Below, in pieces: positions 22,310 to 40,121 of a stretch of 64,000 nt of DNA. A model generated the notes under the pieces. It worked only from the letters and a program-made list of their open reading frames with translations. It was not told the DNA's origin and did no database searches. The stretch comes from Escherichia phage IME08. The position numbers were made by a program, and so were the translations under genes. The DNA lies in the sequence record NC_014260.1; one strand, written 5' to 3'. Numbering within the stretch: the stretch's first letter is position 1; each line of letters begins with the position of its first letter.

Positions 22310-22317
22310 TATTTATA
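22310..22317 (-). promoter_or_regulatory. Candidate late promoter upstream of rI
   Basis: Minus-strand TATAAATA overlapping the stop codon of the upstream gene. Confidence 0.35.
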
Positions 22318-22591: not shown

Positions 22592-22598
22592 AGTACCC

Positions 22599-23171: not shown

Positions 23172-23180
23172 ATTACCTTC

Positions 23181-24014: not shown

Positions 24015-24367
24015 TTAGAATTTAATCCTCGGTTGTACGAGTCAACGAGTCTGTCTACCATAGACGCGCACATTTCTTTGTACTTTTTATCAGATGGAAC
24101 ACATTCAGTAACGTTTAGACGTTGCTCGTACCTTTTAGAAAGAGTTTTCTCTTTCATTCTGCGATGCTCTACGTCGTTCTGTCCATCTTTAAAAGCCGCT
24201 GTGATTTTTGAACTGAATTCGATAACGCATTCAGTATTACTTGGATGACAATAATCTTTTGCTGTGCGGGTAGCATACTCAACAATTGAATTATTGCTAT
24301 CATCAACTTGTGACGCTAATACTCCCGGAGCTATCAACATAAGCGCTATAGTCATCTGCTTAATCAT
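24011..24367 (-). CDS. Secreted/periplasmic hypothetical protein
   Basis: 118 aa with N-terminal signal peptide MIKQMTIALMLIAPGVLASQ. Confidence 0.45.
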   Translation of the reverse strand: MIKQMTIALMLIAPGVLASQVDDSNNSIVEYATRTAKDYCHPSNTECVIEFSSKITAAFKDGQNDVEHRRMKEKTLSKRYEQRLNVTECVPSDKKYKEMCASMVDRLVDSYNRGLNSK

Positions 24368-24907
24368 TTAGTATACCGCCTCAAACATCTTTTTAGATTT
24401 TAGGTAATTGGCCTTTTCTAGAACTTCAGAAGCATACTTACTGCCTGCTTTGACGTTCCAGCCCGCATTATAAGAAGCAATCGCTTTTCTCAGGTCACCT
24501 TTGTGAACATCAATCCAATAAGACAGCTCAATGTAGGCCCAAGAGGCACTGTTCTGTCGTTTTTGGACCATGCGAATTATTTCTTTGTCTGACATCTTCC
24601 AACCTACCTGTTGAACACGACTTCTTAACGTAGGCAAGTAATTTTGGAACATGCCATAAGCATGGTGCTTATCTTTATTTAAACCCTGATTAATTCCGGC
24701 AGATGATTCCTGCCATAGTAATCCGGCCATGATATATCCTAATCCTTTTTGATTAGGGTTTTCTTTGAACTTTCCCGACTTTTGGTATTGTTCACCGAAA
24801 GCATACGCATAATGTAAATTATCGAGTTGTTCATTACTGAAAGTAGGCTCTACGCTATGGGCAGACATACTAACTGTCAATAGTAAAGTGGCTAATACTT
24901 TTTTCAT
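24368..24907 (-). CDS. Secreted lytic transglycosylase (SLT domain)
   Basis: 179 aa; signal peptide MKKVLATLLLTVSMSAHS; SLT motifs WQESS (catalytic Glu-Ser), AYGMFQ, SYNAG. Confidence 0.6.
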   Translation of the reverse strand: MKKVLATLLLTVSMSAHSVEPTFSNEQLDNLHYAYAFGEQYQKSGKFKENPNQKGLGYIMAGLLWQESSAGINQGLNKDKHHAYGMFQNYLPTLRSRVQQVGWKMSDKEIIRMVQKRQNSASWAYIELSYWIDVHKGDLRKAIASYNAGWNVKAGSKYASEVLEKANYLKSKKMFEAVY

Positions 24908-24919
24908 GAGACCTCATTA

Positions 24920-25378
24920 TTAAAGATAGATTACTTTCGTGCTGGTTTTACCTTCTAAACGTTTAGAGTTAACAAATGCCATACGACATTTAAGGGAATA
25001 TCCTTTATCAGGATGTTTACGGTCTACGGTCATACCTAGCCATAAGGTTTTATCGGTAATTTCGAGACGCAATGGACGATACACTTTACCAGGGACAATT
25101 TCGGATTCTACATCAGGCAGAGGTTCCTGGATTAAGAATTCATGGATTTCTTTAACATGGTTATGGAGTTGCTTGAATAAAGCAAAAACGTATTTTTCGT
25201 CGATTTCACGTTGGATAGCACGGTCCAACAAATGATTAGAGTACTTAATAAAGAAGGCTGGGACTCCGCTCTTAACGGCGGCTTTTTTGATGGACGCATT
25301 CAGTTCGCGGAATTCGGTTTCGAACTGACGACGTAATTTGTTGCGGCGGATGAATACTTCTGAATTAATTTCTGACAT
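24920..25378 (-). CDS. regB: Site-specific endoribonuclease RegB
   Basis: 152 aa (T4 RegB 153); EVFIRRNKLRR.FE.EFR...HLLDRAIQREIDE.YVF.LF matches T4 RegB. Confidence 0.85.
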   Translation of the reverse strand: MSEINSEVFIRRNKLRRQFETEFRELNASIKKAAVKSGVPAFFIKYSNHLLDRAIQREIDEKYVFALFKQLHNHVKEIHEFLIQEPLPDVESEIVPGKVYRPLRLEITDKTLWLGMTVDRKHPDKGYSLKCRMAFVNSKRLEGKTSTKVIYL

Positions 25379-25406
25379 TTTGTAATCTCCTGTAGTTGAT
25401 AGGTTT

Positions 25407-25435
25407 ATAGTATCATGTCTACAGGAGATGTAAAC
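25407..25435 (-). promoter_or_regulatory. T4-type early promoter upstream of regB
   Basis: Minus strand GTTTAC, 17 nt, TACTAT, then AAACCTATCAAC; inverted repeat CCTGTAG/CTACAGG spans the -10. Confidence 0.6.
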
Positions 25436-25439
25436 AGCT

Positions 25440-25649
25440 TTATTCTTGGAATGGGGTAAGTTTTCCAGCAGCTGAACAAATTTCTACCAGTACAGGGTAA
25501 AACTCTTTCACTTGTTCAAGGCGTTGGGCTGCATACTGTACTTCGCCTTCTTCGAGACAAGCCATTTGGTCGTCAAGCAAGTATTTGTGGTAGCCTGTAC
25601 AGGCTTCACCGATGATACGCTGGAAATCTTGTAAACTTTCAATTTTCAT
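25440..25649 (-). CDS. Hypothetical protein
   Basis: Internal Met (MKIESLQDF) of track ORF 25440-25691; start codon overlaps the upstream stop. Confidence 0.4.
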   Translation of the reverse strand: MKIESLQDFQRIIGEACTGYHKYLLDDQMACLEEGEVQYAAQRLEQVKEFYPVLVEICSAAGKLTPFQE

Positions 25650-25927
25650 CAGTATTTTTCCTCGGGTTGGAAAACGGAACGACATGCCCACATGCTTGCT
25701 TCTTTCAAGCGTTCGATTGCCGTACGAATCTGGGCTAGGCGTTCATGGGTGAGGTTGAATTCTTCATCACTCATTTTATCAACACCGGAGCATGTAAAGG
25801 CTTCAACATATTCTTCTTCCAAGGCTTTAAAGATTAACCCTAATCGAACTTCGGCATCTTTAATCGCATTCACTTTACCAATTTTATCGTCGGTATGTGG
25901 CTTATAACCCTTAATATCTTCAATCAT
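25649..25927 (-). CDS. Hypothetical protein (candidate Vs.4/Acb2-like by size and position)
   Basis: 92-aa ORF in the regB-to-denV interval where T4 carries vs.3-vs.8; the assignment is positional only. Confidence 0.4.
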   Translation of the reverse strand: MIEDIKGYKPHTDDKIGKVNAIKDAEVRLGLIFKALEEEYVEAFTCSGVDKMSDEEFNLTHERLAQIRTAIERLKEASMWACRSVFQPEEKY

Positions 25928-26142
25928 TTCACTTCCTCATCAGATGCAATATCGTATTCAACTAAATGAATCCCGTCATATCCGCCACGAACAGAGATAT
26001 ATGTGCTAGGATAAACGGTTTCTTTACCATTCCATTGTCCACCATCCCAACATTCCAAAAAGCCTTGTTCGCCCTGTTCGTGGAACCAGTCAACAAACAT
26101 CTTCAGAGCTTCATCAGAGCCTTCAATTGTCAATTTAGACAT
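25924..26142 (-). CDS. Hypothetical acidic protein
   Basis: 72-aa ORF. Confidence 0.4.
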   Translation of the reverse strand: MSKLTIEGSDEALKMFVDWFHEQGEQGFLECWDGGQWNGKETVYPSTYISVRGGYDGIHLVEYDIASDEEVK

Positions 26143-26431
26143 ATTTCTTCCAGTCAGAAATCATATGAATCTCTTGGTCATAAGTTAAGAGACTGCGAGT
26201 AATAATACCCTTACAAGGCCCTGAGATGAACTCGAGGGTGAAGTAAGGAACTTGTTTCATTAATCGGATGCTTGGGGCGTGGCATCTAAAACGAGAGCCC
26301 TTAAAGGGCCCTGTCATGAATACATATTCTAATGGGTAAAAATAAGCATATTCAAAATTCATGGTAAGGTCCTCTCTTCGAACCTTACGTGAGAAATAAC
26401 AGAACTCAAAAAGTTCTTCATCAGTCATCAT
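26135..26431 (-). CDS. Hypothetical protein
   Basis: 98-aa ORF. Confidence 0.4.
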   Translation of the reverse strand: MMTDEELFEFCYFSRKVRREDLTMNFEYAYFYPLEYVFMTGPFKGSRFRCHAPSIRLMKQVPYFTLEFISGPCKGIITRSLLTYDQEIHMISDWKKYV

Positions 26432-26973
26432 TGCATTCCTATCACAAAAAACAGAGGACGTGTGGTTTGATTGGTTTCTTCACATGATGCACGGCAGCAA
26501 TGTTGCACCACCTTTATGTGGGCATCATAAATCTTATCCATATCGGGTGTTTTAACAGGCTCATCAATTATATACAGAACCCGTGAAAGTGATAATCCGC
26601 GGAATTTGCATGCAGTATTACCAATAAAACTACGAACAGAATCAATGTACAAACGGTACTTAATACTTTCTGTATGGTTATTAAAATATTCCTTTCGAAT
26701 AGCTGATGCGGAGACATTAGCATAAGCGCTATTTTGCGATAGAACAATAACAGTACCGCCATCAGCTAACCATTCCGTAGCAAAAATGGATACTGCTTTA
26801 GTTTTACCGGATTGGCGCCCACCATCAAGTTTTAAGGTGCAGCATTCTTTAAACAGGGTTTGTGAATCAGGTACATAAAACCCACTATTACAAATGTGTT
26901 CTACTCTAGCATCAGAATGGTTTGCAAAAGCATTCATCAGGGATAGATAACTACCGGTTAAAAACGTTTTCAT
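26428..26973 (-). CDS. Small P-loop NTPase
   Basis: 181 aa; Walker A GGRQSGKTKA and Walker B-like LYIIDEP. Confidence 0.5.
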   Translation of the reverse strand: MKTFLTGSYLSLMNAFANHSDARVEHICNSGFYVPDSQTLFKECCTLKLDGGRQSGKTKAVSIFATEWLADGGTVIVLSQNSAYANVSASAIRKEYFNNHTESIKYRLYIDSVRSFIGNTACKFRGLSLSRVLYIIDEPVKTPDMDKIYDAHIKVVQHCCRASCEETNQTTRPLFFVIGMQ

Positions 26974-27137
26974 AATTGTCTCTTTTTAAGTGGTGGGGCC
27001 ATTCCTTGGCACATAATTCGTCCATGTATCCGTATGTAAACCCTTTACCGCACTTGGGCTCGACCTTATTACAGGTAGGGAAAGGTCCATCACTCAGAGG
27101 ACGCGACGTTCATGAGGAGAGGGCCGGCTTGCCTTTA

Positions 27138-27437
27138 TTAGAAAGAACCAGAACCTTTAATTGTGTTCTGGCGACCTTTATTTTCTAATTCAGAGTGGTC
27201 GATTTCATATGCTTGTGCTACGCCAAAGGCCTTTTTAACTTTAGCTAAAGAACCTTTAGATGTAACAATATTAAAGGTATTGCCTTTGGTAAAATCAACC
27301 AAATCGACTTGTACACCCTGTTTACCGAGGCTTGCTACAATAGCATCAACATATTCTTGGTCTAAATTGCCTTGAACTCCAATTTGAAATGCTTTAGGAG
27401 CTTTGGCTTCTGTAATAAATTCTTGATAAGTTTTCAT
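27138..27437 (-). CDS. ipII: Internal head protein (IPII-like) with capsid targeting sequence
   Basis: 99 aa; N-terminal MKTYQEFITEA capsid targeting sequence; position next to denV and e. Confidence 0.7.
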   Translation of the reverse strand: MKTYQEFITEAKAPKAFQIGVQGNLDQEYVDAIVASLGKQGVQVDLVDFTKGNTFNIVTSKGSLAKVKKAFGVAQAYEIDHSELENKGRQNTIKGSGSF

Positions 27438-27461
27438 ATTATTCCTTAAGTTGATAGAAGT

Positions 27462-27491
27462 ATTCTATCACGGATTTAATTAAGCGTAAAT
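27462..27491 (-). promoter_or_regulatory. Weak early-promoter-like element upstream of ipII
   Basis: Minus strand ATTTAC, 18 nt, TAGAAT, then ACTTCTATCAAC. Confidence 0.3.
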
Positions 27492-27896
27492 AGCCTTGCC
27501 ATAATGTTTGTACCAGGTAGGACGCTGTGCAATTTTTTCGTCCAAACGGGCCTGAGATATAGCAATAGAAGCTTCGTGGGGAACATAATCGCCACGGAAT
27601 TCCTGAGGAATATCACTAATGTCCTGGACTGTAGTATCCTTGATATTAAAGCCACGTTTTAAACATTCGGCTATAAGCTCGATTTGACGCTTACGTAAAA
27701 ATTCAAGCTTATCATAAAAGAAAGTAACATGGCCTGTACCAAGGATAAAAGTAGAGCTAATTTTAAAATCACGAACACGTTTACCATTAGCAACATGCTT
27801 ACGAACTGCACCGAAAACACGTGGTAATTCGCGATATTCAGCCATTAAGTGTTGGTCGGCCAATTCAGATACTAAGGTAAGGTTAATACGAGTCAT
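27480..27896 (-). CDS. denV: Endonuclease V (pyrimidine-dimer DNA glycosylase) DenV
   Basis: From [47 protein letters not shown] the sequence is nearly identical to T4 endonuclease V (138 aa). Confidence 0.92.
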
Positions 27897-27956
27897 TTTA
27901 GTGTTCTCCATGTTTGTGTGAGAACACTATATCACAGCTATTGTAAAAGTAAACTG

Positions 27957-28259
27957 TTATTTACCTTTAATTGCTTTAGCTGCTTCGGTAGCCGCTTGCT
28001 GAAGGTCATCCATAGACATACCAAACTTAGAAGCAAAGTTATCAATTTTCTTTTCGACAGAATTCAAAGGCTTGGCCTGTTTACCTTCATTAGCGCCCGG
28101 GAGAGCGAGAATACGCTCTTTGTCAATATAAAGGCTTACAAGTTTCTTACGGTCTTTATCTGGCAAATCATGAAATGAATGGGCCTTTTTATTTACAGCG
28201 GCTTCTAATTTACCTGCGGTTACGCGGGCTTCAGTGATAAATTCATTATAAGTTTTCAT
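27957..28259 (-). CDS. Internal head protein with capsid targeting sequence
   Basis: 100 aa, N-terminal [11 protein letters not shown]; lies between denV and e where T4 carries ipIII. Confidence 0.65.
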
Positions 28260-29449: not shown

Positions 29450-30033
29450 TTACGGCATTCCTCAATAAAAGAGTTTAATGTATTTTTCTTGGAGATATCA
29501 TCATATACCTTTTTAACTTTAGAAATACGAAAAGGTACTTCGATAACCGAGGTCCATAAAAATGACGCAATAAGACCCGAGATAGCCGCAGACATCGCTG
29601 AAGCGAATACACAAATAGGCAGGTCATTATCTGTTGTCAGGAAAAACCAAAGGAGTGGAAAAAATAATATTCCCATCCAAACATAGAACCTAGAACTCAC
29701 TAATTTGTCATATTCGTCACTCCATGCGCGAAAGCCGTATTTTTTACTATAACAAATCAACGGGTCCGGAGTCTGCTCTTTATGTGGTTCAGGTTGCCAA
29801 CCGTTTACGATATAACCCATTTTATATTCCTCAATTAAAAGCTGTTTCATTTCAGCAGTACAACCTGACCAATCTATTGTACTGGCTGAAATTCCTTCAT
29901 CACCGTCATCGAGATTTCGCCAGGACTTTTTAATAATCATATTCTCACCGCTTGGGATAATAATTCCGGCATTTTCCGACCGACGGATGAAGTTTACATC
30001 AATGCCCATACACCCGGGTTCATAAAGGGCCAT
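29446..30033 (-). CDS. Membrane protein (195 aa)
   Basis: C-terminal hydrophobic segments (FYVWMGILFFPLLWFFL, AMSAAISGLIASFLW). Confidence 0.45.
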   Translation of the reverse strand: MALYEPGCMGIDVNFIRRSENAGIIIPSGENMIIKKSWRNLDDGDEGISASTIDWSGCTAEMKQLLIEEYKMGYIVNGWQPEPHKEQTPDPLICYSKKYGFRAWSDEYDKLVSSRFYVWMGILFFPLLWFFLTTDNDLPICVFASAMSAAISGLIASFLWTSVIEVPFRISKVKKVYDDISKKNTLNSFIEECRK

Positions 30034-30719
30034 TACCAGCCCTCCATAGGGAATTCCAGATAAACTTGAGCATTAACACGGATTTCATTAGTAATCTTTT
30101 TAACACGGTCGGTATTACGAGAGACACGACCAAACCAGCGCCAACCGTTACTTACTGCACGAGAACCTGTATGCCATGTCTGCCAATCAAATTGGAGCAA
30201 CGTGCGGTCAGGAGCATCCCACTTGGTTAATTCATTGGACTCAATTTTTTCCAGAACTTCTTTATGCCACTGGCGATAGATAAGTTCGCCTTCAGGAATC
30301 TGGCTAAATTGCGCAGTTCCGGTTGCAAAATGGGTAGGACACACATCAGCGTTAACAAGACCAAGAATATGTTCAGAATGGTAACGAGGATTATCATAAT
30401 CAGGCTGCCCTGCGGTAATAAAGTGTTGGCCAACCGGAATATCCGGACGTGGTACATCATCATGGTGATAACCTGGGATAGCAGGGTACCAGCCAGGCAT
30501 CAGCATATGAACACGAGAATCAAATACAACCCGGTCAGTGTTCCAATCATCCGGTAGGTTCATGATGAAGCTGCGAGTAATAGGGCCACCATTATCAAAA
30601 GCGAAGGCCAACGAGCTGTTGAAGAACATAGGTTCGTTTTTGATTTTATCATTAGAAATTTTACCAGCGAAACCACCTACTGCACGAGCTTTAGAATTAA
30701 AAGTTTTTGGACCGTTCAT
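30033..30719 (-). CDS. Hypothetical His-rich protein (228 aa)
   Basis: Several H-x-D/H clusters (HMLMPGW...GYHHDD...H); no family assigned. Confidence 0.45.
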   Translation of the reverse strand: MNGPKTFNSKARAVGGFAGKISNDKIKNEPMFFNSSLAFAFDNGGPITRSFIMNLPDDWNTDRVVFDSRVHMLMPGWYPAIPGYHHDDVPRPDIPVGQHFITAGQPDYDNPRYHSEHILGLVNADVCPTHFATGTAQFSQIPEGELIYRQWHKEVLEKIESNELTKWDAPDRTLLQFDWQTWHTGSRAVSNGWRWFGRVSRNTDRVKKITNEIRVNAQVYLEFPMEGW

Positions 30720-30733
30720 AATATTTTCCTCAC

Positions 30734-30946
30734 TTACTTTTTGTTGAAAAAGTACATTTTACCTTTAGGGGATAAGGATACACGAAGTGCGTTACCGATA
30801 CCAACTGAACATTTAACCAGGTCAGCAGATTTCAATTCACCGAATGCTTGACGAAGGTCACCGTCACGAGTGTTAACCATCAGGCATTTAGCACCAGCTG
30901 CACGAACTTCGTTTAACATGTTGATTGCTTGGTTAGAAAGTTTCAT
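30734..30946 (-). CDS. Hypothetical protein (70 aa)
   Basis: Start at MKLSNQ with SD GGAGAA downstream of an early promoter; track ORF extends to 31024 across the promoter. Confidence 0.45.
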   Translation of the reverse strand: MKLSNQAINMLNEVRAAGAKCLMVNTRDGDLRQAFGELKSADLVKCSVGIGNALRVSLSPKGKMYFFNKK

Positions 30947-30983
30947 TTTATTCTCCATTTCACTCTGTTGTTTTGATAGGTCT

Positions 30984-31012
30984 ATAGTATCATGCCTATA
31001 GACCTTGTAAAC
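30984..31012 (-). promoter_or_regulatory. T4-type early promoter (PeSL-like; identical 46-bp copy at 39181-39226)
   Basis: Minus strand GTTTAC, 17 nt, TACTAT; perfect 10-bp inverted repeat AGGTCTATAG/CTATAGACCT spans the -10. Confidence 0.6.
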
Positions 31013-31024
31013 AATTTTATGCAA

Positions 31025-31984
31025 TTATTTTTCGAAAGGACGAATTAAATGATGGTTATCTTGGAATCGTTTGATGTAGTCGTTTTCACCTAAAGTCTTG
31101 TACATATTAACCACAGCTTGGTAGTTTTCCCAGGCGTACTCACGGAACCAACCTGAAGTGATTGAGGTACACACTTTCTCAAGAGCCATATAGAAACTTA
31201 ATGATGGTGAAATATTGAAGTCATTAGGAACCTGTGAACGTTCTAGTGCCAGGACACAAGTTTCTTCATATACACCAGCCAGTTTAATAGCTTCAGGCAA
31301 AGCCTCGAACTTCTCACGAGAGGTCATGACTTCAGAACCTTCCTTCATATAAAAGGTATATGCCGGGCGCCCTGCCAATGCCACGGCTTCATGGATAGAG
31401 TCGTGGTCTAGCGTATAAATGGTATCGTTAAAGAACGATGATTTGTTTACATCCAATTTAGGGTGGGAATAGCTCAACGTTTCTTTTTGACGCTGCAGCA
31501 TAATTTCCTGGAGTTCTTCATTCAGGGTGATACCTTTATTACGAAGGTATTTGATGTGGGACATAGTTTTCAAGAAGAAAGGATTATTCTTCAGGAAACG
31601 ATGAGAGGTTTTGATAGCCAGACAGATATCAGGCGTAGCCCAATAGAAACCTGTAAGACGGTCCTTTTTAATACGATTTTCAGCATATTTCAGGAGACGA
31701 TAACTTGAGGTGAAATCTTCGTCTTGGAGCTCACCAGTGATTTCACGTACGTTAGTCAGAGCACGGACGATATAAGCTTCGAAATAGGTTTCTTTACCAT
31801 TATGCATACATTTGAAAGCCTGAACATCAGGATTGTCAACGTGTACATGGGCGCCGAACATCCGAGCTTTAAAGTGGTTCCATGAGCCTTGGTCGGCAAT
31901 GAAATCCCAATCAGAATTTTCGATATACTTATTTTCAATCAGACCAGCGTGGTGCAGTGCGCGAGAACCAATAACTAGCATCAT
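31025..31984 (-). CDS. Hypothetical protein (about 319 aa)
   Basis: Start at MMLVIGSRALHHAG with SD GAGGAAAA; N-terminal GS...SDWD is NTase-like but the spacing is atypical. Confidence 0.45.
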   Translation of the reverse strand: MMLVIGSRALHHAGLIENKYIENSDWDFIADQGSWNHFKARMFGAHVHVDNPDVQAFKCMHNGKETYFEAYIVRALTNVREITGELQDEDFTSSYRLLKYAENRIKKDRLTGFYWATPDICLAIKTSHRFLKNNPFFLKTMSHIKYLRNKGITLNEELQEIMLQRQKETLSYSHPKLDVNKSSFFNDTIYTLDHDSIHEAVALAGRPAYTFYMKEGSEVMTSREKFEALPEAIKLAGVYEETCVLALERSQVPNDFNISPSLSFYMALEKVCTSITSGWFREYAWENYQAVVNMYKTLGENDYIKRFQDNHHLIRPFEK

Positions 31985-32003
31985 AATATTTTCCTCAGTA
32001 AAC

Positions 32004-32243
32004 TTAAATTTCGGCAACGTAAGTGTTATGCAATTCCCACATATCATTGGAATTACTCTCAACGATAGGAATTATCTCATTAGAAATTTCTTCTGCATAA
32101 GGGTCATTGATACAGTGAGCATCTTCAAAACGAACACCGTAATCAGACTTCTTATAAGCAAAGCCATAAATCTTTTTAAACTTGGCACGAGTAATGCGTA
32201 CCGGTTCATTAGACTTATCGGACATCGGAGCGTAATACCACAT
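32004..32243 (-). CDS. Hypothetical protein
   Basis: 79-aa ORF. Confidence 0.4.
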   Translation of the reverse strand: MWYYAPMSDKSNEPVRITRAKFKKIYGFAYKKSDYGVRFEDAHCINDPYAEEISNEIIPIVESNSNDMWELHNTYVAEI

Positions 32244-32286
32244 ATGTTCTCCTCATGTTTGTGTAGGGTAATAGTAACACGTATTT

Positions 32287-32637
32287 TTAGAGTTGTACAT
32301 CACTTCTGCAATATTCTAAAAATAATTTATCGTTGTCTACCGTATCCCAACGACGCCAAGATGGATTCCAGACCAGAGCGTTGTCACCACAATCATTGAG
32401 CTTAAAATGGTCGTAGTACATAGCTATACGTCTAGTTTCGTCACCAGAGAACCCCAGTATAGGCTCGCCATGGGTGTGATACATATGATGGTGCATTGAG
32501 AGGTCGCATTTGTAAAACATCTCACGTTTACCACGAACGAACAAGAAGGCTTGCCCATTCATATAGAATTCTTTATCTGTTTTCAAAAGATATTTGAATA
32601 CTGAATCTTTATGCATAAGTCCTCCTACCACATCCAT
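32287..32637 (-). CDS. Hypothetical His-rich protein
   Basis: 116-aa ORF containing HHHMYHTHGE. Confidence 0.4.
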   Translation of the reverse strand: MDVVGGLMHKDSVFKYLLKTDKEFYMNGQAFLFVRGKREMFYKCDLSMHHHMYHTHGEPILGFSGDETRRIAMYYDHFKLNDCGDNALVWNPSWRRWDTVDNDKLFLEYCRSDVQL

Positions 32638-32646
32638 GTGGTTAAA

Positions 32647-32874
32647 TTATTTTCCTAACGAAACACGAGTAGGTTTTTTACCAAAATAGTCTTCGTAAGA
32701 ACCATCTAAACGGCCTGCTTTAGACCGACAATACGAATCATACTTTTTGTAATAAGTCATCTCGGTATTATAACGTGGGTGTCTATCAGCCATAATAATA
32801 CTTAGTGGCCAACCTTTGGCATAATCGCGAAGACCGTTTATTTTACGAATGTATCGTTTTTTCAATTTTAGCAT
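32647..32874 (-). CDS. Hypothetical basic protein
   Basis: 75-aa ORF. Confidence 0.4.
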   Translation of the reverse strand: MLKLKKRYIRKINGLRDYAKGWPLSIIMADRHPRYNTEMTYYKKYDSYCRSKAGRLDGSYEDYFGKKPTRVSLGK

Positions 32875-33092
32875 GAGCTTGGGTACCAGATTTTACCATC
32901 GGATCGAGCAACGAAGGTGCGACCAGCTTCTTCACCATAACAAGAGCTATTCAGCCAATCTTCGAGACGAACTTCACCGTCATAATCATCGAGCTCAACA
33001 CCAAAATCCTGAGCAGAAGCCATATCTTTTACTTTCTTATACAGTGCAGCCAGTTCAAGTGCCGCTTTTTCTAATTCATTAATATCAGTCAT
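32868..33092 (-). CDS. Small acidic protein, W-SSS-C tail family member 5
   Basis: Start at MTDINELEK (SD AAGGTGA); C-terminus ...GKIWYPSSC. Confidence 0.45.
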   Translation of the reverse strand: MTDINELEKAALELAALYKKVKDMASAQDFGVELDDYDGEVRLEDWLNSSCYGEEAGRTFVARSDGKIWYPSSC

Positions 33093-33102
33093 TTTTATCA
33101 CC

Positions 33103-33312
33103 TTAGCAAGACATAGAGGAGCTAAACCAGAAACCTTCACCTTCAGGAATACCGTAGTCATCACGGACCCATTCGTAATCATCATATTCCGGACTAGAAG
33201 CTGGAATATATTCTTCGCCACCAGCGTGGAAGTGCTGACCTGTTTCGTCAGCCACAGACTGGCCTTTACGTACTAATTCACGGATTTGTTTTTCAATTTC
33301 ATCAATAGTCAT
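33103..33312 (-). CDS. Small acidic protein, W-SSS-C tail family member 4
   Basis: 69 aa; C-terminus ...GFWFSSSMSC. Confidence 0.45.
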   Translation of the reverse strand: MTIDEIEKQIRELVRKGQSVADETGQHFHAGGEEYIPASSPEYDDYEWVRDDYGIPEGEGFWFSSSMSC

Positions 33313-33321
33313 TTTATTTCC

Positions 33322-33519
33322 TTAGCATTCGTAAGAGGAGGACACCCAAGAGGTACCACTAATAGTAATACAACCGTTATAAAGCGTGATATGTCGTTCT
33401 AGGTCACGAACACCATCGATATAGATATCGGCTTCTTCGCGTTCTTCTTTACAAATCTGGATAACGTTTTCAATAGCTGCGGCTGCAGTACGGATTGCAC
33501 AATCTAATTCACGAGACAT
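33322..33519 (-). CDS. Small protein, W-SSS-C tail family member 3
   Basis: 65 aa; C-terminus ...TSWVSSSYEC. Confidence 0.45.
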   Translation of the reverse strand: MSRELDCAIRTAAAAIENVIQICKEEREEADIYIDGVRDLERHITLYNGCITISGTSWVSSSYEC

Positions 33520-33528
33520 AATAATTCC

Positions 33529-33810
33529 TTAACATTCAGAAGAAGAGGACACCCAACCACCATTTTCCAGGTCAGTTGTATAGTCATGAGTATTAACAAT
33601 AGCCCATTCAGGATGACCATCTTCTTCCCAGTGGGCCAGGTCAGCTTTCAGGGCGCCAGGAGAATAATAGTCACCGCCCATACCGCGAGCAGGGTATATA
33701 TTAAAATGAGTCTCATATTTGTCTGCAATTTCCTCAGCACGACGAATAGCTTCATGGATTTCTTTTACTGCGGCCAGAAGCTCCGGGTTGTTATGGTTAT
33801 CATTCATCAT
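33529..33810 (-). CDS. Small acidic protein, W-SSS-C tail family member 2
   Basis: 93 aa; C-terminus ...GGWVSSSSEC; internal EEIADKYETHF. Confidence 0.45.
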   Translation of the reverse strand: MMNDNHNNPELLAAVKEIHEAIRRAEEIADKYETHFNIYPARGMGGDYYSPGALKADLAHWEEDGHPEWAIVNTHDYTTDLENGGWVSSSSEC

Positions 33811-33819
33811 AGCGTTTCC

Positions 33820-34110
33820 TTAGCACATTGCTGAAGAGGAGACCCAAGCACCAACTGTAACGACGCCGTTTTCAACTTCACCGCCGTTGTTTTCAATTTC
33901 ATCTTTAAACCACTGGGAGCATTCATAACCGACAGGATAATATGTACGGCCTGAACCATAATCACCGGTACCGAATTGGATACCATACTTATCGGCAATA
34001 GCTTCACATTCATGTTCGATGGTATTCACTTTATTCAGAAGAGCATAGATAGCCTTTTCTGCAGATTTCTCATCGTTGTGTTCTGGGATTTCGATTTCAA
34101 TTTTATTCAT
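33820..34110 (-). CDS. Small acidic protein, W-SSS-C tail family member 1
   Basis: 96 aa; C-terminus ...GAWVSSSAMC; internal EAIADKYGIQF. Confidence 0.45.
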   Translation of the reverse strand: MNKIEIEIPEHNDEKSAEKAIYALLNKVNTIEHECEAIADKYGIQFGTGDYGSGRTYYPVGYECSQWFKDEIENNGGEVENGVVTVGAWVSSSAMC

Positions 34111-34457
34111 GATTTACATTCCTTAATAAAGATTTCAAGGTCATTACGTTTAGTTTGTTTTACATGCTCATTATAATTAGCCATCTCTAAAGCATATCTC
34201 TTACGGATGGGAGCATTCAAAGCGTTTGTATGGCAAATATCATACACAACAGGGATAAAATAAGCCACGACAGCCGGAGCGATTATCATATAAAAACCCA
34301 TCTCAATAGGCGTGACTCCTTCGATTGCCGCCATAACCGTGGTCATTACCAGACCAACCAAACCTCCTAGCATACCGGTGACAATTCCCATAAATAAGGA
34401 AATAGCAATATCATATTCAGCCAATTGATAAACATGTGATGAAAGACTAGGCCGTTC
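34107..34457 (-). CDS. Membrane protein
   Basis: Internal Met (MERPSLSSH) of track ORF 34107-34634; two or three TM helices. Confidence 0.4.
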   Translation of the reverse strand, partial: ERPSLSSHVYQLAEYDIAISLFMGIVTGMLGGLVGLVMTTVMAAIEGVTPIEMGFYMIIAPAVVAYFIPVVYDICHTNALNAPIRKRYALEMANYNEHVKQTKRNDLEIFIKECKS

Positions 34458-34989
34458 CATTTTGAACCTCTTTAGCGTATTCGCGACATTCAGCAATAAA
34501 ACGATTAAGCTTCCGTTGTTGTTTTCGAATCTCTGATGTATACTCATTAGCCAAAATAATAAGCTCATCTTTATCGTAATTTTTAATATCCGAATAACTC
34601 GGGCGGCGGTCGACCATACCAAAGTGGTCACCATTTTCTAACATCAAATAGCATACTAAATGGTAATCATCGTCAGCATCAACAAGCTGTTTACAATCAC
34701 TTGGTTCATTTAAAGCGTATACTGAATAGCATAATCCAGCGAATTCCACTCGTTGAATACCCAGATTTACGTCAATAATTTCTAAAGCTTCTGCAAAAGA
34801 AAGGTCTTCAGCTAAAGCGAAGATAAAGGGCAATTTGGTAGTGTGTCCATGGCTACTTGTTCGACTTAAGAAATCATTGGAATAACCTAGGTCTTGGCGA
34901 ATTCTATAAAGAACTGCATTAGTTTCATGGGAAAGACCGCTATGTTTAAACCAATCAATATTTGATATCAGGTCATCATATAAACTCAT
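34447..34989 (-). CDS. Hypothetical protein (180 aa)
   Basis: ORF with strong SD GGAGGAG. Confidence 0.5.
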   Translation of the reverse strand: MSLYDDLISNIDWFKHSGLSHETNAVLYRIRQDLGYSNDFLSRTSSHGHTTKLPFIFALAEDLSFAEALEIIDVNLGIQRVEFAGLCYSVYALNEPSDCKQLVDADDDYHLVCYLMLENGDHFGMVDRRPSYSDIKNYDKDELIILANEYTSEIRKQQRKLNRFIAECREYAKEVQNGTA

Positions 34990-35012
34990 AATATTCTCCT
35001 CTCCTCCAAATA

Positions 35013-35030
35013 GGGAGACCGAAGTCTCCC
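35013..35030 (-). promoter_or_regulatory. Intercistronic UUCG-tetraloop hairpin
   Basis: GGGAGAC-UUCG-GUCUCCC between the 35038 gene stop and the 34989 gene SD; no U-run follows. Confidence 0.4.
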
Positions 35031-35037
35031 GGTAACA

Positions 35038-35631
35038 TTACTTAAGTGAATTAATGTAGTCGTCGATATCAGCAGAAGTCGTATCCATTCCAACCTGTGG
35101 GCCTTTAAACGTTTCTACACGCAGCAGGGTATCTTCAATATCAATCTTAGTCAGTGCAGCGATTTCAACAACATCATCGGCAGTAGCAATACCAAGGGCA
35201 GCCATATTACGAGTTTCACGGATGTACTCGAGCTTAACAGCCAGTTCCTGACGAGAGTCATCAAGTTCCTTGACCTTCAGTTTAATTTCATTACGCATTT
35301 CGATATAATCATCGGCTTTCTTACGAAGCTGAGTAGCCGTACGACGATAAAGGAGGCCGAGTTTAGCATGTACCTGGACATCAGCGCCTTCGGCAATCAG
35401 TTTACGAATTTCACGTTCTTTAGAAGCAGCAAGCTGGTCTTTTTCATTAGCCAACGCACGAATACGTTTTTCTTCATTCACAGACTTAACATGAGCAGTC
35501 TGGAGTTCAGTGATTTTATCAATCAGGGTAGAAGCAGCTTTAGTATACTGGTCTTCGATTGACAGGTTCTGAGCCATTGCAGTACCCAGTTTAGAACGGA
35601 TGAATTCAACGATTTTCTTTAAAGTGTTCAT
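35038..35631 (-). CDS. Coiled-coil protein (possibly PspA/IM30-like)
   Basis: 197 aa, long heptad-rich helical sequence with the length and charge pattern of PspA-family proteins; similarity is not established. Confidence 0.4.
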
Positions 35632-35673
35632 AGTATTTCCTTCAGTTGGTTAAGATTTATAATCCATGAGGAC

Positions 35674-35703
35674 ATTATACCCTGTCCTCTGAGGGATGTA
35701 AAC
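35674..35703 (-). promoter_or_regulatory. T4-type early promoter
   Basis: Minus strand GTTTAC, 18 nt, TATAAT; inverted repeat GAGGACA/TGTCCTC. Confidence 0.5.
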
Positions 35704-35706
35704 ATT

Positions 35707-36105
35707 TTATTTCATTTTTGCGAGGCAGATTTCATTGGCTTCCCATTGAGCTTGCTTAATAATAGCTTTGGATACAGGAGCCCTTTGGCCATAAGTTTTT
35801 GACGTTGAGAGAACAATATATTTGTTTGTCTCATTATGCCAGCCCCATGATTTTTCGCCATGGGTACCTTTAACTACAGCTGACACCTCAACAGAGCAAC
35901 CACCATCAGAAATCTTGGTTTCGACAATCCATTCATTTCTTTCGGCGGCTTCAAGTTCTAATCTAGTTTTTTCTTCATACATGGCAGCCCAATCAGTTTT
36001 TGCCAAGTTGAAAGTGAGAGCTTTCTCTAATTCTTTGGCAGCTTTTTGTTGTTCAGGCGTTAATGAATTGTACAACTCTTGCATTTCTTTATCTTCGATA
36101 TTCAT
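35707..36105 (-). CDS. Hypothetical protein (132 aa)
   Basis: ORF with SD GAGGAG downstream of an early promoter. Confidence 0.5.
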   Translation of the reverse strand: MNIEDKEMQELYNSLTPEQQKAAKELEKALTFNLAKTDWAAMYEEKTRLELEAAERNEWIVETKISDGGCSVEVSAVVKGTHGEKSWGWHNETNKYIVLSTSKTYGQRAPVSKAIIKQAQWEANEICLAKMK

Positions 36106-36128
36106 TATGTTCTCCTCAAATTATGGGC

Positions 36129-36158
36129 TCATAATATCTTAATCATGAGCCCATGTAA
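36129..36158 (-). promoter_or_regulatory. T4-type early promoter
   Basis: Minus strand GTTTAC, 18 nt, TATTAT; perfect inverted repeat ATGGGCTCAT/ATGAGCCCAT. Confidence 0.55.
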
Positions 36159-36162
36159 ACAA

Positions 36163-36441
36163 TTATTTCATATTATTGAAATACTCTTCCGCATCAAAAT
36201 CGTTATCATGATAAACTTTGGTAGACAATTTAACATAACCTTCGGCGGCAAACATATTAACCACAACCTTTACAGTATACCACTGTCCGTCATCATTACC
36301 CATTACTGCGTAAGTTTCAAATATAGGATGGTCATCACCTATAACCTTAATATCGTTAACAGTAGCACCAAATTCTTCAGGAACGCATTTCATAAAGAAA
36401 TTAAACAATTCACCATAATTATCCATTTTACTCTCCTTCAC
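36163..36441 (-). CDS. Hypothetical acidic protein (92 aa)
   Basis: ORF with SD GGAG, downstream of an early promoter. Confidence 0.45.
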   Translation of the reverse strand: MKESKMDNYGELFNFFMKCVPEEFGATVNDIKVIGDDHPIFETYAVMGNDDGQWYTVKVVVNMFAAEGYVKLSTKVYHDNDFDAEEYFNNMK

Positions 36442-36461
36442 TCTGTTGTTTTGATAGGTCT

Positions 36462-36490
36462 ATAGTATCATGTTTAAAGGAGGTGTAAAC
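36462..36490 (-). promoter_or_regulatory. T4-type early promoter (PeSL-like cassette)
   Basis: Minus strand GTTTAC, 17 nt, TACTAT, AGACCTATCAAAACAACAGAGTG. Confidence 0.6.
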
Positions 36491-36523
36491 AACTTTGTGA
36501 AATTATTTTTAGTCTAAACCCCC

Positions 36524-36546
36524 AAAAGGAGACCGAAGTCTCCTTT
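36524..36546 (-). terminator. Rho-independent terminator (UUCG tetraloop)
   Basis: GGAGAC-UUCG-GUCUCC followed by UUUU, right after the stop of the 36549-37166 gene. Confidence 0.45.
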
Positions 36547-36548
36547 CA

Positions 36549-37166
36549 TTATTTACGGGTCTTTTCGAACTGGGCCGCGTCACCAGCCAGACGACGAGCT
36601 TGACGAAGTTTGTTGTCGATTTCTTCGCGCATAGGCTGGGTATACTTAAGGCCTTCAACCGTCAGATAGAGGCGATAAAGGTCTGGGGTGTCTAGGTTGT
36701 TAATGTGCTGTCCGTTACGAAGAGTATTGAATTCACGAACAAGGTGTTTAGTTTCGGATTCGATTTCAGAAACCAAAGAAGCCAGTTGATTATATTTTTT
36801 AACTATAGTGCTGGTGTCAAACTTGATTTTAGGTTTAGGAGCTTCTTTTACCGGTTCGGCTTTAGGCGTCGGTTTCGGCGCTGCAACTTTGGCCTGGGCT
36901 GCAGGTTTAGCAACAGGAGCTTTAGCTGGTTTAGCAGGCTTAGTAGCGCCGCCAGCTACGATATCTTTAAAAGCTTTAGAAGCTTTGTAATATTCTTTCT
37001 GGTTACTAGTATCAAAACCATACATATCATAAACGTTTTTAAAGAATTCGGTGGTGGTTTTAGTCCCAGAAATTTTATCATAAGCCGCTTGCCACATATC
37101 TTTAGTCATGCGGACGCCGGCTTCGGTCAGAACGCTTTCGTTCAAAAATTCATTGTAAGTTTTCAT
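36549..37166 (-). CDS. Internal head protein (IPIII-like, basic Lys/Ala/Pro-rich) with capsid targeting sequence
   Basis: 205 aa; N-terminal [11 protein letters not shown]; Ala/Lys/Pro-rich basic middle region; its own late promoter upstream. Confidence 0.6.
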   Translation of the reverse strand: MKTYNEFLNESVLTEAGVRMTKDMWQAAYDKISGTKTTTEFFKNVYDMYGFDTSNQKEYYKASKAFKDIVAGGATKPAKPAKAPVAKPAAQAKVAAPKPTPKAEPVKEAPKPKIKFDTSTIVKKYNQLASLVSEIESETKHLVREFNTLRNGQHINNLDTPDLYRLYLTVEGLKYTQPMREEIDNKLRQARRLAGDAAQFEKTRK

Positions 37167-37194
37167 TATTGTTTCCTGTGTTAATTAACTTATC

Positions 37195-37202
37195 TATTTA
37201 TA
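37195..37202 (-). promoter_or_regulatory. Late promoter (TATAAATA) for the internal protein gene
   Basis: Minus-strand TATAAATA about 29 nt upstream of the ATG, SD ACAGGAAAC in between. Confidence 0.55.
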
Positions 37203-37203
37203 C

Positions 37204-37233
37204 AAAAAAGGCCCAACCTTTCGGAAGGGCCTT
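37204..37233 (-). terminator. Rho-independent terminator downstream of the tRNA cluster
   Basis: Minus-strand GGCCC...GAAA...GGGCC hairpin followed by UUUUUU. Confidence 0.6.
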
Positions 37234-37401
37234 TAACCTAGGGTAACCTTGTCGGGGTTCCACCTGCTAGGCAAGTGTTCGGTGCGCCGTTTCGGCTGTG
37301 AGATAAGGGACTTTAAGAGGAACTCATGTACGCCTTAAAGTCGGGTCTTATTCAGGGAACTTCAGTCCGACGACTTACCGGTAGCGACCCGGTTTCTTGT
37401 T

Positions 37402-37477
37402 TGGCCGAGACAGTAGGGATCGAACCTACGACCCAGGACTTAGAAGGTCCTTGCTCTTCCTTCTGAGCTATGCCTCG
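37402..37477 (-). tRNA. tRNA-Arg (anticodon UCU)
   Basis: 76 nt cloverleaf folded by hand: acceptor CGAGGCA/TGTCTCG, D-stem GCTC/GAGC, anticodon stem AGGAC/GTCCT with loop CTTCTAA, T-arm GTAGG-TTCGATC-CCTAC, encoded CCA. Confidence 0.8.
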
Positions 37478-37481
37478 TATT

Positions 37482-37556
37482 TGGCGGACATGCATGGATT
37501 CGAACCATGGACCAATTGATTAACAGTCAACTGCTCTACCACTGAGCTACACATCC
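37482..37556 (-). tRNA. tRNA-Asn (anticodon GUU)
   Basis: 75 nt: acceptor GGATGTG/CATGTCC (two G-U pairs), D-arm GCTC-AGTGGTA-GAGC, anticodon loop CTGTTAA, T-arm CATGG-TTCGAAT-CCATG, encoded CCA. Confidence 0.75.
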
Positions 37557-37560
37557 AAAT

Positions 37561-37634
37561 TGGTGGCCCTGGGTGGAATCGAACCACCATCCAGCGATTA
37601 TGAGTCGCTCGCTTGACCGTCCAGCTACAGGGCC
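37561..37634 (-). tRNA. tRNA with CAU anticodon (Ile2/lysidine-type or Met)
   Basis: 74 nt: acceptor GGCCCTG/CAGGGCC, anticodon arm AGCGA-CTCATAA-TCGCT, T-arm GGTGG-TTCGATT-CCACC, encoded CCA; anticodon arm resembles bacterial tRNA-Ile2. Confidence 0.7.
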
Positions 37635-37719
37635 TTAATTCTATTATGAAAGGCTCTTTGAGGGAAGAACCTTTGGTAATAGAGGGTATTAATGATAGAG
37701 TAATAATATCACATAATTC

Positions 37720-38004
37720 TTAAAGCATATTAATGTAATCAAGTTTAATAGAAGCAATCTTCAAAGGATTTTTAAAGATGTCGTATTCGACCAATCCATT
37801 TTCAGTTGCGGTATAAAAAGTAAAGTTAACAGAATTATAACGATGGCTGTTAACTTTGAGCTTAACATCGCTTGAACTACGTCCTATATTAACCTGTTGA
37901 ACATCAAGAACAGCATCTTTGCCATAATTGCGAATCAACAACTCAGCTGCAACCTGATCGGATTTATAGCCATTCTCTGGATTAGTAACCTTAACGTATA
38001 GCAT
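37720..38004 (-). CDS. Hypothetical protein (94 aa)
   Basis: ORF upstream of the tRNA cluster. Confidence 0.45.
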   Translation of the reverse strand: MLYVKVTNPENGYKSDQVAAELLIRNYGKDAVLDVQQVNIGRSSSDVKLKVNSHRYNSVNFTFYTATENGLVEYDIFKNPLKIASIKLDYINML

Positions 38005-38406
38005 TTAACCCTCGTCTACAATTGTGTGGGTATTGGCATTAACAATCTGCCACCAGTCAAAACGATTAGAACCGTAACAAGGCTTATTCTCGTTATCTTT
38101 AATGATATTACGTAGTTCATCTTCAGTAGCAGCTTTTGCGATTAAGTCAGTGTATCCACCACGTGGATAATAGTTGTCACCGGCGAACAAAAGGAAATTT
38201 ACCTTTCCAGAAGGAATATATGCTTCCTTAGGATACTTGTTTCCTGCATGGTCTACCACTTCAATATAACGATAAGGGATATCAGTACTTTCAACCCATT
38301 GCCAAGCTGCAGCAGGAGAGTCAAAAGCATCAACACCTAAACGGTTATCTTCATCTTTAGACGGGTTATTTTCATAATCCGCATATACATAATATTCAAC
38401 GTTCAT
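38005..38406 (-). CDS. Hypothetical protein (133 aa)
   Basis: ORF, start overlaps the upstream stop. Confidence 0.45.
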   Translation of the reverse strand: MNVEYYVYADYENNPSKDEDNRLGVDAFDSPAAAWQWVESTDIPYRYIEVVDHAGNKYPKEAYIPSGKVNFLLFAGDNYYPRGGYTDLIAKAATEDELRNIIKDNENKPCYGSNRFDWWQIVNANTHTIVDEG

Positions 38407-38603
38407 TATTCACCTTTAGAGATTTTATCCATTACGAAAGAGATTGAACCAATTAAAAATGCCACTACTAAAGAGATTATATTCTCGGAAGTTGAAAGCA
38501 TATCGAGCATGAATCCTGCAAACATACTAAAGCCAAAAGCAGTAACGGCTGCCAGTGCAGTAACATTTCTAATTAATTCACAACGTTTCATTTTATTCTC
38601 CAA
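38406..38603 (-). CDS. Small membrane protein (65 aa)
   Basis: Hydrophobic ORF with SD GGAG, downstream of an early promoter. Confidence 0.4.
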   Translation of the reverse strand: MENKMKRCELIRNVTALAAVTAFGFSMFAGFMLDMLSTSENIISLVVAFLIGSISFVMDKISKGE

Positions 38604-38627
38604 TCACTCATTTGTTTTGATAGGGCT

Positions 38628-38657
38628 ATAGTACCATCACTAGAGCCCGTTGTAAAC
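38628..38657 (-). promoter_or_regulatory. T4-type early promoter
   Basis: Minus strand GTTTAC, 18 nt, TACTAT, then AGCCCTATCAAAACA. Confidence 0.55.
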
Positions 38658-38659
38658 AA

Positions 38660-38932
38660 TTATTTTAAATAAATTGCATACTTTTTATAACCAGCCGTTT
38701 CGTGACGCAGCCCTTTTTCATTAGCAAAACGTTCAATATTGTTAATTTGATTCTGGTCGAGTTCTGAAGTATCAAATACAAAAAAGTTTCGCTTATTGCC
38801 TAAAGTTACATGATTAGTCAAATCGATGTTATAGAGATGATTTATATTATCAATCATAGTCTTAACAGATTTGTTAATTTTTACTTCTTCATTAAGAATA
38901 GATTCAGCGATAAATTCTTGATATGTTTTCAT
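38660..38932 (-). CDS. Internal-protein-like protein with capsid targeting sequence
   Basis: 90 aa, N-terminal MKTYQEFIAES. Confidence 0.55.
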   Translation of the reverse strand: MKTYQEFIAESILNEEVKINKSVKTMIDNINHLYNIDLTNHVTLGNKRNFFVFDTSELDQNQINNIERFANEKGLRHETAGYKKYAIYLK

Positions 38933-38934
38933 TT

Positions 38935-39159
38935 TTATTCAGCGCCAGCGGCTTTCAAAAGTTTTTTAAGATTAGCGGTGCCTTGAGCAGAAAATGTGAC
39001 CTTGCCGTCTTTTTCGCCGATGCTCCCGGTCAATTTAGCGAGCTTATCACTAGGGACTTTTTTAAAATCAGCCAATGAACCGTCAAAGGTTTTTGTAACA
39101 ACCGGCAGTTGGTCTTCGTGTTTTTTAGCTTCGGTAATAAATTCTTGATAAGTTTTCAT
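38935..39159 (-). CDS. Internal-protein-like protein with capsid targeting sequence
   Basis: 74 aa, N-terminal MKTYQEFITEA. Confidence 0.55.
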   Translation of the reverse strand: MKTYQEFITEAKKHEDQLPVVTKTFDGSLADFKKVPSDKLAKLTGSIGEKDGKVTFSAQGTANLKKLLKAAGAE

Positions 39160-39196
39160 TTTGATTTCCGTTTGGTTAGTTTGTTTTGATAGGTCT

Positions 39197-39225
39197 ATAG
39201 TATCATGCCTATAGACCTTGTAAAC
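39197..39225 (-). promoter_or_regulatory. T4-type early promoter (PeSL-like; identical copy of the 30984 element)
   Basis: Minus strand GTTTAC, 17 nt, TACTAT with AGGTCTATAG/CTATAGACCT inverted repeat. Confidence 0.6.
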
Positions 39226-39237
39226 ACCTTTTTTAAA

Positions 39238-40121
<884 letters not shown>

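Follow-up and report, generated by a model that had tools for sequence, protein, structure and literature searches.

Why would a phage genome carry the same 46 bp twice, about 8 kb apart, in front of genes that show no evident similarity? The question is raised by Escherichia phage IME08 (NC_014260.1), of which one stretch of 64,000 nt, called the window throughout, was analyzed. By sequence comparison, the source is a Dhakavirus, i.e. a JS98/JS10-like T4-type coliphage: positions 30000-40000 match Enterobacteria phage vB_EcoM_IME341 with 99.2% identity, and other Dhakavirus genomes, such as JS98, JS10 and IME281, with 93-95%. The 46-mer, TTGTTTTGATAGGTCTATAGTATCATGCCTATAGACCTTGTAAACA, has exactly two perfect copies, at 30968-31013 and 39181-39226, as the initial annotation of this DNA had stated; no further copy with up to three mismatches was found in the window, and the chance expectation is 0 (100 shuffles). 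We propose that the repeats very probably are T4-type early (sigma-70) promoter cassettes of the promoter-early stem-loop (PeSL) kind, which act as exchange points for genes.

A comparison of the window with itself places the 46-mer first among its exact direct repeats. The second-longest is a 36-nt match (30959-30994 and 36437-36472) and the third is 27 nt long. The 36-nt match is the third copy of the initial annotation, which exists but had been given as 34 nt at 36441-36474. Near-identical leaders, Shine-Dalgarno (SD) sequences and start codons had also been described at 30941, 36421 and 38586; the first and last of these agree exactly over 18 nt (30940-30957 and 38585-38602), whereas the one at 36421 is looser (GAAGGAGAGTAAAATG versus ATGGAGAATAAAATG), yet has ATCAAAACAACAGAGTGAA in common. 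The proteins that follow, namely a 70-aa open reading frame (ORF), e.8 (87 aa), trna.4 (61 aa) and ip8 (74 aa), had been called unrelated, and inspection without alignment likewise revealed no evident similarity. A sequencing or assembly artefact that collapsed or duplicated a short repeat has a negligible probability: IME341, which was sequenced independently, has both copies, the allele of the 30968-31013 copy also occurs in phages C6 and MX01, about 24 deposited Dhakavirus records contain the 46-mer at 100% identity, several of them at two or three places per genome, and we found no point in favor of an error.

Read on the minus strand, the 46-mer has the form TGTTTACA-AGGTCTATAG-GCATGA-TACTAT-AGACCTATCAAAACAA, corresponding to a -35 element, a 17-nt spacer, a TGn/-10 element and a start region. 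Using a regular expression and then a position weight matrix (PWM), we found 14 cassettes of this type, all on the minus strand, all in intergenic-type positions and all within 8.6-39.2 kb, the part of the window with early and non-essential genes. Their common layout is an A-rich UP-like element, GTTTAC, a spacer of 17-18 nt, TAnnAT (often preceded by TGn), a leader, an SD and the ATG of a minus-strand ORF, and the conserved start region AGACCTATCAA is found in 8 of the 14. The PWM scores of these cassettes, which are also its training set, are at least 27.7, compared with 15.0 for the next best site and 1.4 for the best plus-strand site; neither the plus strand nor the late-gene half (42-64 kb) has a comparable match. 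A generic sigma-70 scan listed all six cassettes of the 29.5-40.5 kb interval, four of them with a TG before the -10. The term promoter cassette used in the initial annotation therefore suits each copy, and judged by their sequence the repeats are three to four members of a 14-member minus-strand family of putative promoters. The -35 elements are at 39225, 38657, 36490, 36160, 35703, 31012, 27954, 25435, 21516, 18205, 16804, 14238, 9735 and 8608, and each cassette is named after this position. The members, with the two genes next to the exact repeats, are as follows.

30918-31037, minus strand: cassette A (P31012), with -35 GTTTAC at 31007-31012, -10 TACTAT at 30984-30989, leader ATCAAAACAACAGAGTGAAATGGAGAATAAA and ATG at 30946; holds the 46-mer at 30968-31013.
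30996-31005 and 30978-30987, minus strand: stem arms of cassette A, AGGTCTATAG and CTATAGACCT, with an 8-nt loop.
30734-30946, minus strand: 70-aa early ORF downstream of cassette A, orthologue of IME341 gp155, a hypothetical protein.
39131-39250, minus strand: cassette B (P39225), with -35 at 39220-39225, -10 at 39197-39202 and stem arms at 39209-39218 and 39191-39200; holds the 46-mer at 39181-39226 and is predicted to drive ip8.
38935-39159, minus strand: ip8-like internal virion protein gene downstream of cassette B, with the capsid-targeting start MKTYQEFITE.
36396-36515, minus strand: cassette P36490, with -35 at 36485-36490 and a spacer, CACCTCCTTT, complementary to its own SD, AAGGAGAG; predicted to drive e.8 (36163-36426).
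38563-38682, minus strand: cassette P38657, with -35 at 38652-38657, a stem GGGCTCTAG/CTATAGCCC that is compensatory with respect to A and B, and a leader/SD identical to that of A over 18 nt; predicted to drive trna.4 (38406-38591), trna.3 and trna.2.
36066-36185, minus strand: cassette P36160, with -35 at 36155-36160 and a 13-bp stem TGGGCTCATGA.../...TATGAGCCCA over the -10; predicted to drive an orf133-like gene (35707-36105).
35609-35728, minus strand: cassette P35703, with -35 at 35698-35703, -10 TATAAT and a stem GAGGACA/TGTCCTC; predicted to drive e.6 (35038-35631).
8514-27979, minus strand: eight further members, with -35 at 27954, 25435 (regB), 21516, 18205, 16804, 14238, 9735 and 8608.

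Besides these, a few degenerate cassettes are present, e.g. at 32300 and 27491. The first is this one.

32244-32305, minus strand: degenerate cassette, ATGTAC-18-TACTAT and then CCCTACACAAACATGAGGAGAACATATG, upstream of an ORF at 32004-32243.

Going by established T4 biology, the cassettes would be active as promoters and would fire immediately after infection, each supplying a small minus-strand early gene with the complete set of signals from the UP-like element through the -35, -10, start region AGACCTATCAA and leader to the SD and ATG.

The cassettes have a second property in common. The part of the spacer that adjoins GTTTAC has a complement further downstream, a strong one in 10 cassettes and a weak one in 3; the exception is P27954, in which a hairpin begins at the -10 instead. 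Two layouts can be distinguished. In the first, the 3' arm is the -10/+1 core, as in A and B (AGGTCTATAG/CTATAGACCT), P38657 (GGGCTCTAG/CTATAGCCC), P36160 (13 bp), P35703 and P8608. In the second, the 3' arm is the leader or SD, as in P25435 (ATCTCCTGTAG/CTACAGGAGAT), P16804, P36490 (CCTCCTT/AAGGAG) and P9735, and more weakly in P21516, P18205 and P14238. Cognate combinations of spacer and downstream sequence have a mean duplex energy of -13.0 kcal/mol; the mean is -7.8 when the partners are non-cognate (p=2e-5) and -5.4 when the spacer is shuffled (p=7e-8). This swap of cognate and non-cognate partners shows that the complementarity is specific to each cassette. Arms that differ between paralogues stay complementary (AGGTCT/AGACCT, GGGCT/AGCCC, GAGGACA/TGTCCTC and ATCTCCTGTAG/CTACAGGAGAT), and the mean fold z-score of the cassettes is -3.1. 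Against the JS10 orthologues, the stem substitutions are too few for covariation to be scored: one strengthened a base pair, another disrupted one, and in one case the pair was shifted.

An inverted repeat over a promoter could also be an operator, bound by a dimeric phage protein that shuts the early promoters off. The palindrome does span the spacer and the -10, and the shut-off mechanism of T4 early promoters is described in the literature as not completely understood. However, the arms are wholly different between cassettes while co-varying, and half of the cassettes have their 3' arm 20-30 nt off, in the leader or SD, without symmetry about the -10. Co-varying and asymmetric arms argue for a folded strand and not for a sequence-specific dimer site, which makes the operator very improbable.

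How might a stem in a PeSL-type promoter act? With the 5' arm inside the -35/-10 spacer, and the 3' arm falling in the leader/SD or the -10/+1 region, a transcript from the cassette's own promoter would be without the 5' arm, and upstream read-through RNA alone could fold. The predicted folds follow this pattern: from the -35 to the ATG, i.e. on read-through RNA, they range from -8.6 to -20.1 kcal/mol, and from the predicted +1 they range from 0 to -2.3. The SD is predicted to be fully paired in the read-through fold only in 6 of 14 cassettes, and partly in a seventh. On read-through RNA the stem may thus be an attenuator, as for the PeSLs of RB49, or an SD mask, as for T4 e, soc, 49 and I-TevI, and the two roles are about equally plausible. 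A broader version, that every cassette is a translational as well as a transcriptional insulator whose read-through RNA folds while the RNA from its own promoter is open, is a tentative and rather doubtful extension of the fold model. Some spacers read like the 3' end of 16S rRNA (CACCTCCTT). If the extension is true, the 'promoter inside a hairpin' device of T4 e, soc, 49 and I-TevI would no longer be confined to a few late promoters but would apply to early promoters in general, and insulation would explain gene plus cassette as a self-sufficient, portable unit.

Whether genes have been exchanged at these cassettes can be read from related genomes. Breakpoint statistics were obtained for JS10 and IME341 only, and the other genomes were compared by targeted alignments. 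Phage UP19 is without the orf133-like gene (35707-36105 in the window), and its single cassette equals P36160 up to TGTTTACA and P35703 from the spacer on. In VR5, both e.8 and orf133 are absent, and the remaining cassette equals P36490, including its upstream terminator, through CTATCAAAAC and then continues into the e.6 leader. The terminator in question is the following.

36525-36546, minus strand: terminator-like hairpin, GGAGACUUCGGUCUCC then UUUU, directly upstream of P36490 and after a 205-aa internal protein (IP)-like gene.

JS10 is without this 205-aa IP-like gene and e.8; its single cassette matches P36490 at 40/41 positions from the -10 to the SD and then orf133 at 75/76. IME341 is collinear with the window at 99.8% identity up to 36502, within the UP region of P36490. 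Beyond it, window positions 36503-37634, with the 205-aa IP-like gene and three tRNAs, are exchanged for 2.2 kb in IME341 (8004-10208) that carry two hypothetical genes besides an annotated endonuclease. On the left this replacement begins in cassette P36490, and on the right it ends exactly at the 5' end of tRNA-Met; it may be associated with homing by the endonuclease. Between the window and JS10, 21 junctions were found over positions 1-42000, and 9 of the 42 block ends are within the 120-nt cassette contexts, which make up 4% of the sequence (p=4e-5 versus random sequence). The mosaic cassettes at presence/absence joints in JS10, UP19 and VR5, together with the IME341 replacement that starts inside P36490, support the suggestion of the initial annotation that these sites are hotspots for gene gain and loss.

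A second module of homology is in the coding sequence. Six minus-strand genes (starts at 27440, 28262, 37166, 38932, 39159 and 39447) begin with MKTY(Q/N)EF(I/L)xE, the capsid-targeting sequence of T4 internal proteins, and a JS10 breakpoint is located within this coding repeat (39137). IP content varies between relatives, with breakpoints in the cassette or in the targeting sequence.

Joints of this kind might also be left by site-specific mobile cassettes, attC-like or resembling miniature inverted-repeat transposable elements (MITEs), with the hairpin as the target of a dedicated recombinase or nuclease. A conserved hairpin-forming element does flank single small ORFs here, and Arbiol 2010 (PMC2839356) considered a recombination protein that might bind the stem, and found mini-circles. 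The crossover position, however, varies by event among four positions (the -35, the leader, the SD and the edge of the UP element), the complementarity of the stem is conserved while its sequence is not, and no integrase or transposase was found in the annotated neighbourhoods. T4-type recombination, moreover, needs short homology only (Singer 1982, as cited in PMC2839356). We give such a dedicated system very little weight. An integron attC-like site-specific cassette was rejected as a class, with crossovers at four positions and no integrase in the annotated neighbourhoods. For PeSL-type cassettes as exchange points, near-identical stretches of 40-90 nt, spaced a few hundred to a few thousand bases apart, would offer crossover points for homologous recombination of the phage; crossovers there would delete, insert or swap the genes in between, and short-patch exchange would homogenize the cassettes.

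Does such an exchange also account for the identity of the two 46-mers? We compared site A, i.e. cassette A, among 13 Dhakavirus genomes and found three alleles. The common allele, in 8 of the 13, is AAAACAGT[A/G]TAC...GGTGTGATACTAT (CAGT[A/G]TAC...GGTGTG). The window, IME341, C6 and MX01 have AAAATTGTTTAC...GGCATGATACTAT (TTGTTTAC...GGCATG), which is the sequence of site B; EcWhh-1 falls in between, with the first block only. A scan of IMG/VR for the site-A alleles returned the same five known isolates only. The identity could be due to pure constraint or convergence, both sites having reached the optimum of a strongly selected promoter with a stem-forced spacer, so that no recent exchange is needed. 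In line with this, TGTTTACA, ATGATACTATAGACCTATCAA and AACAA belong to the family consensus, pairing with CTATAGACCT fixes the 10 nt of the 5' arm, all five site-A differences go towards the family consensus (GTTTAC, CATGA), and the partial allele of EcWhh-1 is what a stepwise path predicts. On the other hand, the B-like allele differs from the common one by five linked changes clustered in 24 bp, within about 100 nt that are nearly invariant across 13 genomes differing by about 7% overall. The allele is also common to different flanking haplotypes (MX01 versus C6 and IME341) and does not track them, as the flank of MX01 goes with CLB_P2 and not with the other carriers. Identical 46-mers at two to three loci in several genomes, together with the mosaic cassettes, which show that exchange inside cassettes takes place, are also unexpected under constraint acting on its own. 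We therefore regard constraint as an unlikely sole cause, and favor strong constraint combined with short-patch exchange at site A, for which the sequence pattern makes the exchange component fairly probable.

The longest string shared by a pair of cassettes has a median of only 9 nt. A 41-nt version of the 46-mer variant, 100% identical, was also seen at a third locus distant from the e-ip region, at 26138-26178 in IME281 and 37462-37502 in EcWhh-1, and also in dhabil, MN04 and CUA3. These copies suggest that the stem variant of A and B is dispersed around the genome.

Several results weigh against the reading of the repeats as PeSL-type promoters and exchange points. Promoter and stem function are deduced from sequence and from relatives. 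A terminator scan of the minus strand called none of the promoter-embedded stems, and these stems are without U-tracts, their 3' arms running into AUCAAAAC... or the SD, so that these stems may not have the 'terminator' role described in the literature. Canonical hairpins with U-runs, distinct from the embedded stems, are found upstream of only 3 of the 14 cassettes (P36490, P21516 and P18205). Folding energies of the 14 cassettes are no different between sense and antisense (p=0.49), so that the structure may belong to either strand and to the RNA or the DNA level. As for exchange, family consensus or the stem dictates 41 of the 46 shared positions, and much of the identity is thus due to constraint rather than recency. 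The change at site A may have been a conversion towards B or a decay away from B, and EcWhh-1 could equally be a mutational intermediate. Against a null of gene boundaries, the 7 of 21 window/JS10 junctions that touch a cassette are not enriched (5.8 expected, p=0.36), and we accordingly make no claim that cassettes are hotter than other gene boundaries. The remaining 14 junctions are without an early-promoter cassette (3756/3961, 7973/8206, 12042/12368, 23366/23362 and others). Finally, no phage record covers at least 80% of an A×B deletion junction (upstream of B, the 46-mer, then downstream of A) or of its reciprocal. The deletion variants expected in related genomes with the repeats as breakpoints were found as mosaic joints at other cassettes, but none between the two exact copies. 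The assertion of the initial annotation that the identity implies recent recombination or copying is supported by the site-A allele pattern, with the caveat of the constrained bases and the missing A×B recombinant.

About half of the cassette-free JS10 junctions are indels of single small genes, roughly 200-330 bp in size. Two candidate interpretations of the stems were dropped. None of the embedded stems was called as an intrinsic (rho-independent) terminator, for which a GC-rich stem with a U-tract within 0-2 nt is expected, and G·U pairs, of which two occur in P16804, were abandoned as proof of a sense-RNA structure on the outcome of the sense/antisense test.

The features of the family can be compared with those of known systems. 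T4 early promoters (Pe) have GTTTAC at -36 to -31, an A-rich element at -40 to -44 and an extended consensus (Nolan 2006; Hinton 2010). They share with the cassettes GTTTAC, the A-rich element, TGn, TAnnAT, extra conserved positions around +1 and a location upstream of early genes, including novel ORFs; there is no essential difference, the Dhakavirus version having a very conserved AGACCTATCAA. In RB49 and phi1, the stem of the PeSLs is mostly between the -35 and -10 or over the -10, crossovers have been mapped between the -10, SD and ATG, and promoter and terminator activity have been measured (PMC2839356). The AT-rich upstream region, sigma-70-type -35/-10, embedded stem-loop, SD and ATG are the same in both, as are the many copies in hyperplastic regions and the cassettes flanking the differential ORFs of close relatives. 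RB49 has TTGACA and mostly GGGG...CCCC stems, whereas the Dhakavirus cassettes have GTTTAC and stems that are AT-richer and differ individually. In about half of them the 3' arm is the SD itself, and this translational aspect is not discussed in PMC2839356. While promoter/terminator activity and mini-circles were measured in RB49/phi1, the Dhakavirus cassettes are known from sequence alone.

The PeSL consensus of T4 and PST is TTTACW-N17-TAYWAT (Comeau 2014, PMC4122927). The PeSLs of T4/PST and KVP40/nt-1 agree with the present ones in the type of consensus, in cassettes beside indels and replacements in hyperplastic regions and in degraded 'half' cassettes (PMC4122927). For PST, the stem-loops are described as immediately preceding the promoter; in the Dhakavirus family such an upstream hairpin is found in 3/14 and complementarity inside the promoter in 13/14. 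All sequence-level features of PeSLs are present in the Dhakavirus family: -35/-10 elements at 16-18 nt, an AT-rich upstream region, a stem-loop, an SD and ATG, clustering and crossover inside cassettes. The PeSL phenomenon has already been described for T4-like phages, and Dhakavirus is an added lineage; JS98 receives a passing mention only in that literature (PMC2839356). One point goes beyond what is described there, and we put it forward as a hypothesis: the 5' arm would be regularly built into the spacer, which is not transcribed, and in about half of the cassettes it would face the SD.

For T4 e, soc, 49 and I-TevI, long upstream transcripts bury the SD, and transcripts from proximal promoters are without the 5' arm and are translated (Uzan & Miller 2010, PMC3014915). 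The same behaviour is predicted for 6-7 of the 14 Dhakavirus cassettes. The internal promoters of the T4 genes are late and follow a temporal logic (early silent, late active), whereas here the upstream and proximal promoters are both predicted to be early, which would make for insulation rather than timing. The shuffling of T-even IP loci (Repoila et al. 1994, as cited in PMC2839356) is comparable as far as that citation describes it: cassette B is predicted to drive an IP gene, six genes carry the targeting sequence, and IP content differs between relatives. Relative to that description, the common module here also covers the start of the genes, so that the targeting peptide adds another kind of homology to that of the promoter. 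With these cassettes, JS98 and other dhakaviruses would join the T4-like lineages in which promoter/stem-loop cassettes mark joints of gene presence and absence. Public genomes supply examples of crossovers at the sequence level in the -35, the leader and the SD, and for the engineering and comparison of therapeutic T4-like coliphages the cassettes indicate where small early genes likely come and go.

Annotated relatives identify the interval that holds the repeats as the hyperplastic e / e.x / tRNA / internal-protein / 57B-57A region of T4-type phages, with all genes on the minus strand. Three tRNAs are located at 37402-37634, and a search of Rfam matched these three only, with no RNA family on the cassettes. 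Upstream of the tRNA cluster, at about 37700-37735 on the minus strand, ATATGCTTTA-12 nt-TATTAT matches in sequence the form of a T4 middle promoter (MotA box TGCTTtA, 11-13 nt, TAtaAT) and not the early cassette. A terminator-like hairpin, GGCCCTTCCGAAAGGTTGGGCC, with a T-run is found at 37194-37226 (minus strand), followed by the T4 late-promoter motif TATAAATAG, with the 205-aa IP-like gene (36549-37166) immediately behind it; the equivalent terminator of JS10 precedes an early cassette instead of the late-promoter motif. At 32868-34110 (minus strand), five consecutive small ORFs (65-96 aa) share the motif W(V/F/Y)(S/P)SS..C at their C-termini, and near-identical sequence recurs at three of the junctions between the genes (repeats at 33302, 33509 and 33800); by sequence they are a tandem paralogous family. 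Outside the early region, at least six tandem copies of a unit of about 93 nt, with 61-77% identity, are located at 58809-59430 (plus strand), with related 51-nt repeats at 55695-56255, and this array looks like a repeat-domain structural gene.

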